Positions 77 through 21,572 of a DNA stretch of 21,572 bases are shown here, one piece after another. This stretch comes from a virus (lineage: Duplodnaviria > Heunggongvirae > Uroviricota > Caudoviricetes). The stretch covers positions 1-21,572 of IMG/VR virus record IMGVR_UViG_3300045988_085028. The stretch is one strand, 5' to 3'. The notes under the pieces were generated by a model. That model had not been told where the DNA came from. It worked only from the letters and a program-made list of their open reading frames with translations, and searched no databases. The position numbers and the translations under genes are program-made. The stretch's first letter is position 1. Each line of letters begins with the position of its first letter.

Positions 77-754
77 CTAAACCGCTTTGAGCGTTCCCCG
101 AACCGTACCGACAACATATATGTCAACTATAAGGTTACCGTTACCAGACGCTGCTGAGCTCAAGGTGCATCTAAGTACGCACCCATTTTCTGTCCGAGAA
201 AACGTTCTTACGTCGTAAAGAGTTGAATCTGGTTGACCAGGAATTGCCACACCGACAAGCTCTGTTATCACATTAGGAGTTGCAACCCAACCAGTATATG
301 GATACGTTACTGTCAAATTGACAAATGAAGAGCCGGCTTGAATTGGTACTGATAACTGCTTTCTTACTACTGTATTCAACTCCCCCATTGAGGACACAAG
401 AGAAGAGTCCGGGGTGATATGAGTCATCAGGTTCACGCTGTTCAGGTTGCGCGTAATGTTAACAGCACTAATGCGGTTGGAAGTACTTTCATCCAATACA
501 GCGCTATACGCAGACAGAGCAGATTCCGAAATGATAACGCGGTTGTTAGCACTGGTAGCAGTTGCTCGCACCAATCTGTAGGTTAAGCCATTACTGTAAG
601 CACCTTTAATGTTCTGCATCAGCACCTGGTGCGAGGTCGCCCCATCCCCTAAGTACAGGAGGTTCGCACTATCTGCCGTGTCCCCATACTGACCGTCATA
701 CACTACTTGCGTATTAAGGATGTTAACACCAAATGCCCCTGCAGGGGACACCAT
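77..754 (-). CDS. Hypothetical beta-rich (S/T/N/V/G-rich) protein, 225 aa; candidate moron or lysogenic-conversion gene transcribed away from the att core
   Basis: Uninterrupted 225-codon ORF with ATG at 752-754 (MVSPAG encoded by the att core itself) and an in-frame stop immediately upstream. A GGGAG sits about 11 nt upstream. No signal peptide or TM segment is evident. I do not recognise the family. It is the only ORF of 60 aa or more in 1-878 on either strand. Confidence 0.45.
   Translation of the reverse strand: MVSPAGAFGVNILNTQVVYDGQYGDTADSANLLYLGDGATSHQVLMQNIKGAYSNGLTYRLVRATATSANNRVIISESALSAYSAVLDESTSNRISAVNITRNLNSVNLMTHITPDSSLVSSMGELNTVVRKQLSVPIQAGSSFVNLTVTYPYTGWVATPNVITELVGVAIPGQPDSTLYDVRTFSRTENGCVLRCTLSSAASGNGNLIVDIYVVGTVRGTLKAV
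738..753 (+). other. Attachment-site core: 16 bp identical to the 3' end (T-stem/acceptor/CCA) of tRNA-Arg(CCU) argW, without the rest of the tRNA
   Basis: CCTGCAGGGGACACCA at 738-753 matches the recalled 3' end of E. coli argW (...GATTCCTGCAGGGGACACCA). The sequence upstream (...caaatgcc) does not continue as a tRNA T-loop, so this looks like an attP-type core (or an attR-like junction), not an intact tRNA gene. Confidence 0.5.
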
Positions 755-914
755 TTATCAGTTCGCTCCCATCCGTACCAGTCCGCAAAATCCCCTGAAT
801 ATCAAGCCTTCCGTAGATTTACAGTTCGTCATGGTTCGCGTCAGATTGTTGACAGCCGCACTCCATGACGGGTAAAAAGTGGATAAAATAATTTTACCCA
901 CCGGATTTTTACCC

Positions 915-2072
915 ATGCTCACCGTTAAGCAGATTGAAGCAGCAAAGCCGAAAGAAAAACCATACCGCCTACTCGATGGTAATGGCCTGTACCTTTATGT
1001 CCCTGTATCAGGGAAAAAGGTATGGCAGCTTCGCTACAAGATTGACGGTAAGGAGAAAATCCTGACCATCTGAAAATATCCGCTTATGACTTTGCAGAAG
1101 GCAAGGGATAAGGCATGGACTGCGAGGAAAGACATCTCGGTTGGCATCGATCCGGTAAAGGCGAAAAAGGCTTCGTCTAACAACAATTCCTTTAGTGCGA
1201 TTTACAAGGAATGGTACGAGCACAAGAAGCAAGTCTGGTCAGTAGGGTATGCGACTGAACTTGCAAAAATGTTTGATGACGACATTTTACCTATCATCGG
1301 CGTCCTTGAAATTCAGGATATTGAGCCGATGCAACTGCTGGAAGTAATCCGCAGATTTGAAGATCGCGGTGCAATGGAGCGAGCCAACAAAGCCCGCAGA
1401 AGATGCGGCGAGGTTTTCCGTTACGCTATTGTCACTGGTAGGGCTAAATATAACCCGGCACCTGACCTTGCTGACGCCATGAAGGGATACCGCAAGAAGA
1501 ACTTCCCATTTTTACCTGCCGACCAGATCCCGGCATTCAACAAAGCACTTGCAACATTTTCAGGAAGTATCGTATCGCTCATTGCTACTAAAATTTTACG
1601 CTACACCGCCCTAAGAACGAAAGAGCTTCGTTCCATGCAATGGAAGAACGTCGATTTTGAAAACAGGATTATCACCATCGACGCCAGTGTGATGAAGGGA
1701 CGCAAAATTCATGTGGTTCCTATGTCAGACCAGGTGGTTGAACTTCTCACTACGCTAAACTCAATCACCAAACCAGTATCAGAGTTTGTTTTTGCCGGGC
1801 GCAACGATAAGAAGAAGCCAATTTGCGAGAACGCTGTACTGCTTGTGATCAAACAAATCGGCTATGAAGGTCTGGAAAGCGGTCACGGATTCAGGCATGA
1901 ATTCAGCACGATTATGAACGAGCACGAATGGCCTGCTGATGCTATTGAAGTGCAACTGGCACATGCCAACGGCGGATCTGTGCGCGGGATTTACAACCAT
2001 GCTCAGTATCTCGATAAGCGCAGAGAAGTGATGCAGTGGTGGGCGGATTGGATTGATGAAAAGGTGGAGTGA
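915..2072 (+). pseudogene. intS: P4/IntS-family tyrosine integrase (about 385 codons) interrupted by an in-frame TGA at 1071-1073
   Basis: ORF-track segments 879..1073 and 1086..2072 are in the same frame and together read as one integrase: an N-terminal arm-binding (DUF4102-like) region MLTVKQIEAAKPKEKPYRLLDGNGLYLYVPVSGKKVWQLRYKIDGKEKILTI, then TGA, then KYPLMTLQKARDKAW and the catalytic domain. From memory this is close to E. coli IntS (CPS-53/KpLE1), which has TVGKYP where this window has TI-stop-KYP. The likely start is ATG at 915; position 879 is a GTG lying inside repeat motifs. The 328-aa downstream ORF alone would lack the arm-binding domain. Confidence 0.7.
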
Positions 2073-2088
2073 TCCACCTTTTCTGTTA
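2061..2088 (+). terminator. Intrinsic terminator hairpin between convergent int and tailspike, possibly bidirectional
   Basis: AAGGTGGA (2061-2068), loop GTGA, TCCACCTT (2073-2080), followed by TTCTGTT on the + strand. The int stop codon lies in the loop, and an A-rich run precedes the stem on the - strand. Confidence 0.6.
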
Positions 2089-2089
2089 A

Positions 2090-4084
2090 TTATTCAGCCT
2101 TAGCAAAAGTGGTCATAGTTGTTCCACTGAAAGTGAATGACCTGTCTGTAAGAGTAACATCCTGAATAGCAAAGTAATCGCCAACACCAGCGCCATTTAC
2201 ATAAAACTCGAATATCTCAGATGTATTTTCCGGAATAATATTATTAGCAATATAACACGTAGATAAAGAACCATTTGTTGATGGTAAAGTTCCAAATAGC
2301 GTTGCATCCGATGCAGCATATATCGAACTGCTTAAATAAATATTTATATCAACATTACTCTCATAAGTAACAATTAAGTACACCCGGTCGTTAACCTTCC
2401 ACCCTCTGTCTTTTATCTTAGTATTAAGTGATAGCTTGTTAGAACTAGGGTTCGTTACGGTATTAATGGTTATTTTTGCTCCTATTGAGTTGTATCTGCT
2501 TCTGGTTACTGTATTACCAGTATTGTTCATTGTATAAAGGATTGCCCTGCTTTCTGCAAACGTCCTCATATTGATCTTGCCTAAACAATCTCCTTCCATA
2601 ACTTGTGGGCCAGACACAGTTGCACCAATATAACAATCAGTAAATACAGCATGAGCCCTGTTGTCAGTGCTTGATGCAAGTAATGAAAGTTTAAAGTTGC
2701 CCTGATCTGCAATCCAGCAACTATCAACCTTAACTACAGCATCATTGTCAAGAACAACAAACCTTCCTCCCTCATTGTAATATCCTACAAAAGCATTTAC
2801 ACCGCTTATTTTTACTACTCCATCTGGAACCGTAAAGATATCGCCTTGTATCGCTTCGCCATAGTACCCGCCAACAATATTGGTCACTCGGGTATTTAAG
2901 TACATGCCATGCCCAATGCCGAACTCAAGGTCACATCCAATTAAGCTTAAACCTTCAATAGGGGAAGTACCAGAAGCATAAAAGGCATATTCACCGACCT
3001 TATTTGATGCAAATCCACAGTTATTGAACGTTACGCGGTTGTTAGCCCCAGCAAGGTGAACTCCGCGATTTGGCGCAGGAACAAAAGAACAGCAATCATA
3101 GGTATTAAGCCAGTCGTTTATAGTATAGAAGTTCGCCACCGCGCCATTGATGAAACGACAATTATGGGTTCTTCCTAGGTGAACATATTGAATTCGGCAA
3201 GGATAGTTGGCGATGTTGTTCCCATCAACTGTAACGTGAGAGATAGATGTGCTACGTCTTATAGAGTCAGTTTCGTAGTACATGTTGACAACTGCCTCTC
3301 CAGTGAACCCACTCCCCGCAATAATGAATGACTTCTCAACGCCATCCCCGAATAGGTCAACAGTGCCTATTGTTAAATCAACTGGTGACTTAACATAGTA
3401 AGTTCCTGCAGGGACAAACAGCCTCTTTCCTGCCGATAAAGCAACTGCTGCAGCAGCATTAAAGCTAGCTGAGTTATCTGCCGCTGGATCACCAGTAATG
3501 GGGAAAAATTGAGCAACAGAAATATAATCTGCTACCGTCACTTCGTACCATGGCAAAGCAGGAGATGACGGAAGAGTGCCACTACCACCGGTGTAGATTT
3601 TATTATTATACCACCACCAGTTATCAACATTAGATAACGCCCCCTCCTGCCATACACCGCCTAACGAGAAATCAAGACCGTAAGAAGTAGCTATCTGACT
3701 TAATGATAATGTTGCCCCTCTGTCAGAAGCTAATTCTTGCCTTAATTGGTCAGGGTCATACTTCAGGACATTAGGAAAATAGAACTGCTGCGCACCGTAC
3801 GCATCATAAACAGCCATAGAATGGCCTTGCACAGTTACGAATTTGGCAATCTGTCCGTTATATACAGGATAACCAGCAGCGTTAATGATGATTGGTTGCG
3901 AAACAGGAACGTGAGAACCGTCTTCGTTCTCTACATAAACCGGAATCTGGTTTTCAGTATTTACCGGGTCAGTGTCAATTTTACCGATATAAATTTTGCC
4001 ATTAGCTACGGCTTTAAAAGAACGCGCCATAGTGAAGAGTTGCGAAGGCATGCTAACTACAACATTGGCTGTAATGTCTGTCAT
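2090..4084 (-). CDS. Tailspike protein: P22 gp9-type N-terminal head-binding domain fused to a divergent beta-helix receptor-binding/depolymerase domain (664 aa)
   Basis: The N-terminal ~110 aa ([42 protein letters not shown]...VLKYDPDQ) match the conserved P22/Sf6 tailspike head-binding domain from memory. The remainder is not P22- or Sf6-like, is AT-richer, and has asparagine/glycine-ladder character typical of right-handed beta-helix depolymerases. A GGAG lies about 9 nt upstream of the ATG at 4082-4084. Confidence 0.9.
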
Positions 4085-21166: not shown

Positions 21167-21572
21167 TCATTTCAGGCATTGCGTCCTGATGTATTCCTGC
21201 AGGTAGTTAACCTGCGCGGTTATCCTGTCGATTCCACTTCGGAGACGGTAATAATTGAGTTCAGCATCTGCTGTAAGTCTTGGGCTTTCTCCATCGCCCA
21301 TGCTGCTGGCTCCGGTCGTTGACTTTGCACAGGTGGCGGCGACTTGCAGGCGCTTACGACCAGCAGAAACATCAGCACGGAGACTTTCGATAGTCGCGTT
21401 AGCATCAGCAAGCTCCTTTGTGTATCTGGCGTCGAGTTCTGCTACATCACGTTGACGCTTCTGCATGTCAGCGATGATGTACGTGGCTTTATCGCGCTGG
21501 GTTTTGTAGGTAATGGCGTTATTACGGTAATGATTAACAGCCCATGACAGGCAGACGATGATGCAGATAACC
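21167..21572 (-). CDS. Rz: Rz i-spanin, 5'-partial (start lies beyond the right edge of the window)
   Basis: The frame is open to the window edge, and the translation ...[28 protein letters not shown]...[22 protein letters not shown]...[11 protein letters not shown] aligns with lambda Rz from memory. The ORF-track start at 21466 is an internal Met. Confidence 0.85.
21220..21411 (-). CDS. Rz1: Rz1 o-spanin lipoprotein, embedded in the +1 frame of Rz
   Basis: 63 aa, lipoprotein signal with lipobox (LLVVSAC), proline-rich mature part ([13 protein letters not shown]), fully nested within Rz as in lambda. Confidence 0.75.

Follow-up and report, generated by a model that had tools for sequence, protein, structure and literature searches.

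The integrase IntS of KplE1 (CPS-53), a cryptic prophage of E. coli K-12, is active together with the RDF TorI at argW, and it represses its own promoter via the attL sites that this promoter overlaps (PMC2951348). The P22-like phages HK620, Sf6 and CUS-3 (Lederbergvirus) also integrate at the tRNA-Arg gene argW. Their int is an intact gene of 385 aa that is convergent with the adjoining tailspike gene, and their attP is complete, with a P arm and an HkaC/HkaB region. The window, by which we mean the whole stretch of 21,572 nt analyzed here, contains a gene with 96-97% nucleotide identity to int of these three phages. IntS of KplE1 falls into the same protein cluster at an identity of at least 90%, and PGAP gives the name intS to close relatives in complete E. 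coli genomes, of which more than 2,000 carry one. With HK620, Sf6 and CUS-3 the locus has in common the att core, the int promoter, the P' arm repeats and the convergence of int with a tailspike gene, and its promoter overlaps the attL arm sites in the same layout as in KplE1 (PMC2951348). It differs from the phages in that codon 53 is TGA, a tailspike fragment stands in place of the P arm, no RDF was detected, and the prophage lies at the lambda attB rather than at argW. Unlike KplE1 IntS, the window copy is interrupted, lacks a detectable RDF and is far from argW. We consider it very probable that this gene is a genuine, inherited nonsense pseudogene of the HK620/Sf6/KplE1 IntS type, and that the mutation struck a gene which had become redundant before.

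Table 1. Predicted features of the IntS locus and its surroundings. Positions refer to the window.
Feature	Position	Strand	Remarks
C-terminal fragment of a different tailspike gene, 225-aa ORF	77..754	-	Replaces P arm; fused to att core
IntS-type att core (3' end of tRNA-Arg argW), attL-like half-site only	739..754	+	16/16 identical to annotated HK620 attP core
int promoter (HK620 "prophage excision" promoter)	849..898	+	50/50 identical to HK620 annotation
Sigma-70-like match	865..892	+	Within int promoter
P'-side arm-type repeats of IntS att site	869..915	+	22/22 and 26/26 identical to HK620 attP repeats
IntS/HK620/Sf6-type tyrosine integrase pseudogene	915..2072	+	386 codons including internal and terminal stop
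52-aa N-terminal ORF	915..1073	+	First ~58% of arm-binding domain only; PF13356 Arm-DNA-bind_3
In-frame TGA in place of invariant Gly53 codon GGA	1071..1073	+	G to T at 1071
328-aa ORF from Met58 codon	1086..2072	+	Arm-binding domain tail, core-binding domain, catalytic domain (Pfam)
Arm-type repeat inside int	1283..1293	+	11/11 identical to HK620 annotation
Segment recurring 100% identical as 75-nt 3' remnant of a second intS copy	1989..2063	+	Remnant at L008 266-340
Terminator-like hairpin, 11-pair stem	2058..2083	+	Between convergent int and tailspike genes
Intact tailspike of resident P22-like prophage	2090..4084	-	PF09008 Head_binding and pectate-lyase-like domain; convergent with int

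From the ATG at 915 to the terminal TGA at 2070-2072 the integrase occupies one frame, and the TGA at 1071-1073 is its sole internal stop, as the initial annotation had described (Table 1). No uninterrupted ORF of about 385 aa is present, codon 53 being TGA. That annotation had also named a glycine codon, GGA, at the equivalent position of IntS, and this proved correct. Codon 53 is GGA in all ten intact alleles that were aligned (HK620, Sf6 and eight from E. coli, with GTC, GTA or ATC as the preceding codon), and the 120 best family representatives, drawn from several enterobacterial genera and 80-98% identical, have Gly53 without exception. HK620, Sf6 and three intact E. coli intS alleles have GTC or GTA followed by GGA at the site of ATC TGA in the window; the intact "ATC GGA" haplotype occurs in eight complete genomes. 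Given GGA in the intact alleles and TGA in the window, the stop is accounted for by a single G-to-T change at position 1071. Full-length IntS is not encoded here, as the result of this single-base nonsense change in the GGA glycine codon.

The domains expected of an IntS-type protein, PF13356, Phage_int_M (PF22022) and Phage_integrase (PF00589), are all recognizable across 915-2072, split over two ORFs. While the initial annotation was right to place them in one integrase frame, its description of the TGA as a divider that sets the arm-binding domain apart from what follows does not hold, as the stop cuts this domain itself. The 52-aa ORF matches positions 1-48 of the 83 in the PF13356 profile (E=7e-12), and the 328-aa ORF matches positions 54-82 of that profile, followed by PF22022 and by positions 2-170 of the 172 in PF00589. 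Homologous arm domains of known structure (3JU0 and 3JTZ) align to residues 2-89, and the core-binding domain matches PDB entry 2KJ8, "putative prophage CPS-53 integrase". Of the catalytic residues R..K..HxxR..H..Y, the first Arg pairs with the Arg of the TGQR motif of lambda-type Int in a BLASTP alignment that covers that region only. The translation contains the motifs HGFRH and LAH(x9)Y, the later catalytic residues having been picked by eye.

Among 5426 complete E. coli genomes, the exact 31-mer centred on the T at 1071 occurs in two, both from pigs: NZ_CP080223.1 (O141:H4 strain P13-6, France) and NZ_CP122880.1 (strain ETEC1716, Belgium). RefSeq annotates both copies (KZW89_RS16595 in P13-6 and QDX09_RS17400 in ETEC1716) as "prophage integrase IntS, pseudogene, internal stop". 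They match the window at 1157 of 1158 nt, with the identical TGA and identical neighbours. The product of the 52-aa ORF is on record in 42 public assembly collection blocks, from which 24 contigs were read; besides the two genomes, the TGA is present in at least 24 public contigs from isolates and metagenomes, one of them seen in 20 or more samples. All TGA-bearing alleles are 0-2 nt from the window allele, save one recombinant that has its 3' half from another allele. Coverage of the whole window reaches at best 76% in complete E. coli genomes and at best 61% in phage records. The left flank was read from ENA metagenome scaffold ERZ28577305 scaffold_412 (40,991 bp), which is 100% identical to the window.

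The initial annotation had listed a sequencing error among its explanations, and under this reading the true codon would be GGA and the integrase intact. The window does derive from a metagenome scaffold, and one of its bases, T1303, is private to that scaffold. Against this, the identical TGA and its flanking haplotype recur in two genomes that were finished by different laboratories in different countries, as well as in no fewer than 24 other contigs, and a G-to-T substitution is untypical of homopolymer or indel artefacts. We therefore regard the sequencing or assembly error as effectively refuted, with next to no probability left to it. The TGA is a genuine inherited nonsense change, and the exact pseudogene is already known and flagged in RefSeq. 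As the stop is real, annotators should leave the TGA unrepaired.

The prophage is P22-like, and both in the contig of the window and in ETEC1716 and P13-6 it sits between ybhB and ybhC, which is the lambda attachment site. The genes bioA-ybhB lie upstream in every TGA-bearing contig with enough flank. Intact relatives of the integrase gene directly adjoin tRNA-Arg argW, among them all five of the intact "ATC GGA" alleles that were examined, and no tRNA gene that would mark an argW-type junction was found in the window. The end of the window's contig consists of 43 nt from the host, located downstream of ybhB, followed by a lambda core, a putative lambda-like P arm and a putative sib/tI-like hairpin. 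In ETEC1716 the prophage is flanked by two perfect 15-bp lambda cores, and its ybhC end carries an excisionase Xis (PF07825) and an Int of 356 aa whose arm-binding domain is of the lambda type (PF09003). Because an attR stands at the contig end and 99%-identical relatives carry these genes, we infer that the contig of the window itself has a lambda-type int/xis pair, at a distance of more than 10 kb from the window.

These findings bear on the consequences of the stop. The initial annotation had proposed that an inactive integrase would lock in the prophage or prevent lysogeny, a proposal that finds no support: the prophage is located at the lambda attB between lambda att cores, close relatives carry lambda-type Int and Xis at the other end, and the IntS gene is orphaned. 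IntS function thus appears to be dispensable or replaced, with lambda att cores flanking the prophage, lambda-type Int/Xis in ETEC1716 and attR in the window's contig. Integration and excision of the prophage would depend on the lambda-type system, in which case the stop would be without effect on lysogeny or on prophage lock-in. Since the element uses a lambda-type integration module at the lambda attB, the stop is no evidence for a locked-in or non-lysogenizing prophage. The attR core at the contig end (positions 44-58 of the extended contig, L008) reads TTAGTATAAAAAGGC, with one mismatch. Set against the perfect cores of ETEC1716, this mismatch may be a real, excision-impairing core mutation or a contig-end error.

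What remains of the IntS attachment module is consistent with an orphaned gene. Homology of the window to the intact argW relatives and to phage attP starts exactly at the 16-bp core, and this core is the sole IntS core in the whole of the related ETEC1716 prophage. The P-arm repeat was absent from the colinear position, from the rest of the window, from the extended contig L008 and from the whole ETEC1716 prophage. A tblastn search with HK620 HkaC for an HkaC/TorI-type RDF gave no significant match to either the window or the prophage of ETEC1716. Of a cognate att site with a core and both arms, only the core and the P' repeats are thus present. By these comparisons the IntS gene is an internal orphan relic, without P arm, partner core or cognate RDF.

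The place of the P arm is taken by the tailspike fragment. Its ORF and the last 224 aa of an intact tailspike (L023 8289-8954) are 76% identical in amino acids, and no Pfam match was found in the ORF. The fragment is joined to the att core at a pseudo-core in its source gene, CCTGTAGGGGC against CCTGCAGGGGA. This junction suggests a secondary-site integration or a microhomology-mediated deletion. The intact tailspike gene that is convergent with int is annotated as a tailspike in relatives. In two further contigs, L030 and L034 (GCA_012929705.1 and GCA_012929805.1), the same pseudogene is accompanied by the 3' part of the tailspike gene, with homology up to window position 3722; a different 5' part is joined there, giving a 763-aa protein without a Head_binding match. 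It is suggested that the attR-proximal module may be retained during exchanges that affect the remainder of the prophage.

A trace of a second intS copy lies just left of the window. This 75-nt remnant abuts the lambda-like sib/tI hairpin and attR, and it carries the rare V372 and I380 codons that are also found in the window allele. The remnant appears to mark the point at which integration modules were swapped, and the two intS copies have possibly undergone gene conversion. A 371-aa Acyl_transf_3 protein is encoded on the minus strand at L008 429-1544, just left of the window and between the two integrase relics; its gene occupies the position of the Sf6 oac O-antigen acetylase and is likely a serotype-converting moron.

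A tandem or captured order with both intS genes intact is found at argW in strain 2018-01-1CC (NZ_AP021892.1, L005 4713-9373), where tRNA-Arg is followed by intS#1, an acyltransferase gene, a tailspike fragment, an att core, intS#2 and tail genes. This arrangement is the probable precursor of the window layout. In the history that we propose, a phage would have picked up such an argW arrangement, comprising intS#1, the acyltransferase gene, the tailspike fragment, the core and intS#2. A lambda int-xis-attP-sib module would then have taken the place of the functional attP and of all but 75 nt of intS#1. The orphaned intS#2, now at 915-2072, would have drifted, acquiring the stop and missense changes at otherwise invariant residues, and no full-length IntS would be produced from it.

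The substitutions in the gene can be compared with this history. Six bases are private to the window allele relative to the ten intact alleles: the nonsense change and those giving E62K, G130V, S282N, M372V and L380I. All six are non-synonymous and none is synonymous, as compared with 8 non-synonymous and 21 synonymous private changes pooled over the ten intact alleles (Fisher p=0.0019), although the counts are small and V372 and I380 are common to the 75-nt remnant. As these two codons also occur in the remnant, gene conversion rather than independent drift may explain both. A naive test, which set 5 of 5 missense changes against a pairwise non-synonymous fraction of 0.124, was dropped in favour of this private-change control, since an excess of non-synonymous changes is seen among private variants of intact genes as well. 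The pattern of private changes fits relaxed constraint. Two of the residues altered, Glu62 (E62K) and Met372 (M372V), are invariant in 120 of the 120 representatives. T1303, which changes Gly130 to Val, was found in the window's contig only, among all TGA-bearing alleles examined, which indicates that G130V arose after the stop. T1303 may be a post-inactivation mutation or a metagenome assembly variant.

The age of the stop relative to other losses can be estimated from the morphogenesis genes. The window holds a complete set of P22-type morphogenesis ORFs (142, 471, 732, 297, 417, 153, 472, 233, 151, 230, 468 and 613 aa). The segment 11482-19870, which extends from the tail gene gp26/gp10 to most of the large terminase gene and includes gp4, coat, scaffold and portal, is present in the window; the prophages of ETEC1716 and P13-6, elsewhere 98-99% identical, have a precise deletion of it. 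The P13-6 prophage has a further IS2 insertion in a DNA-transfer gene. Since the head genes are kept in the window and lost in the two complete genomes, and the TGA is common to all three, the stop predates the later decay; with its morphogenesis genes retained, the metagenomic copy seems much less decayed than those of ETEC1716 and P13-6. Sister prophages with the same lambda location (ETEC4073) retain an intact orphan intS, so that orphaning by itself has not brought about rapid decay. In the window, the frame is intact save for the one stop and the promoter is perfectly conserved, which makes some expression of fragments possible.

A short distance between a stop and a following ATG permits some termination-reinitiation in bacterial translation. 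ATG 1086 lies only 12 nt past the stop, and it is conceivable for this reason that a 328-aa product is made by re-initiation. Its core-binding and catalytic domains would be intact by Pfam, the int promoter is conserved, and the product might keep a function in core-site cleavage, in topoisomerase-like activity or in junction resolution. Several lines of evidence make such a functional product very unlikely. ATG 1086 is simply the family-invariant Met58 codon, found in 120 of 120 representatives, and it is preceded by no Shine-Dalgarno-like sequence. The initial annotation had raised the possibility that homologous integrases begin naturally at the equivalent of 1086. Among the 120 best cluster representatives we found none of about 328 aa that starts near Met58 and lacks PF13356: 119 are 384-393 aa long, one is 367 aa, and the arm-binding domain PF13356 is present in all.

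The behaviour of lambda Int also argues against a working 328-aa fragment. Its C-terminal part alone, or its separate N- and C-terminal parts when mixed, do not recombine, and the arm-binding and catalytic parts as separate polypeptides, a situation like that of the two ORFs in the window, are dead unless engineered (PMC9791396). Lambda Int belongs to a different subfamily, with the arm domain PF09003 instead of PF13356, and the argument is thus carried over by analogy. The lambda protein was split after its arm domain whereas the break in the window falls inside it, and by this analogy the window case should be worse. A 328-aa product would moreover find neither a partner att site nor an RDF, and the substitution pattern of the gene fits relaxed constraint.

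UGA is the leakiest stop codon in E. coli, and the frame beyond it is open. Low-level read-through or programmed recoding could thus yield some full-length IntS, an outcome that we consider highly improbable. No Rfam recoding family (for example SECIS) reached the gathering score anywhere in the window, and the fold of an 81-nt stretch that includes the stop and the sequence following it is no more stable than those of shuffled sequences (z=+0.40). The TGA is limited to one near-clonal allele and occurs in 0 of the 120 family representatives, which argues against a conserved recoding site. Near-cognate read-through of UGA most likely inserts Trp, which would then replace the invariant Gly. Even a full-length enzyme would be without P arm, partner core and RDF.

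It has also to be considered that the 52-aa peptide is retained as an arm-site-binding regulator or decoy, acting on the int promoter or against incoming argW-integrating phages. Self-repression by IntS is known (PMC2951348), the repeats and promoter involved are perfectly conserved in the window, and the allele persists across prophages with differing tailspike modules. The peptide, however, comprises only positions 1-48 of the 83 in the arm-domain profile, and without the second half of the solved domain (residues 2-89) its stable folding is doubtful. No sign of selection for keeping the peptide was seen, and recent common ancestry accounts for the conserved promoter and repeats, as the alleles differ by 0-2 nt. 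We regard a role of this kind as extremely improbable. Given that KplE1 IntS represses itself, loss of the arm domain would be expected to relieve control of the promoter, unless another IntS acts in trans. More generally, there is a very slight chance that the gene is not inert and that its 52-aa or 328-aa fragment may bind IntS-type att sites and modulate other argW-integrating elements of the KplE1/HK620/Sf6 type. If a fragment were active, it might for example interfere with the integration or excision of argW elements in the same cell.

The pseudogene reading, to which we return, makes 915-2072 an ordinary case, a decaying, redundant integrase in a mosaic prophage. Integrase pseudogenes are common in prophages, and the feature matters little by itself. 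The locus is a clean worked example of the swapping of integration modules and of the decay of a captured second integrase.

Two other regions of the window contain recognizable elements. On the plus strand, 5095-5161 matches the P22 sar antisense RNA in Rfam (RF00262, 65.6 bits), in an immI-like region. Near it are an Arc-family gene, a second gene with Pfam matches to Arc and the Mnt repressor, and a gene for a 242-aa antirepressor-like protein of the Bro-N/P22_AR_C type. On the minus strand, 21167-21466 is an Rz-like lysis ORF (PF03245) of 99 aa, as compared with 145-156 aa in relatives. Records of this short 99-aa form exist for 21 contigs; either a truncation or the use of another start may explain it.
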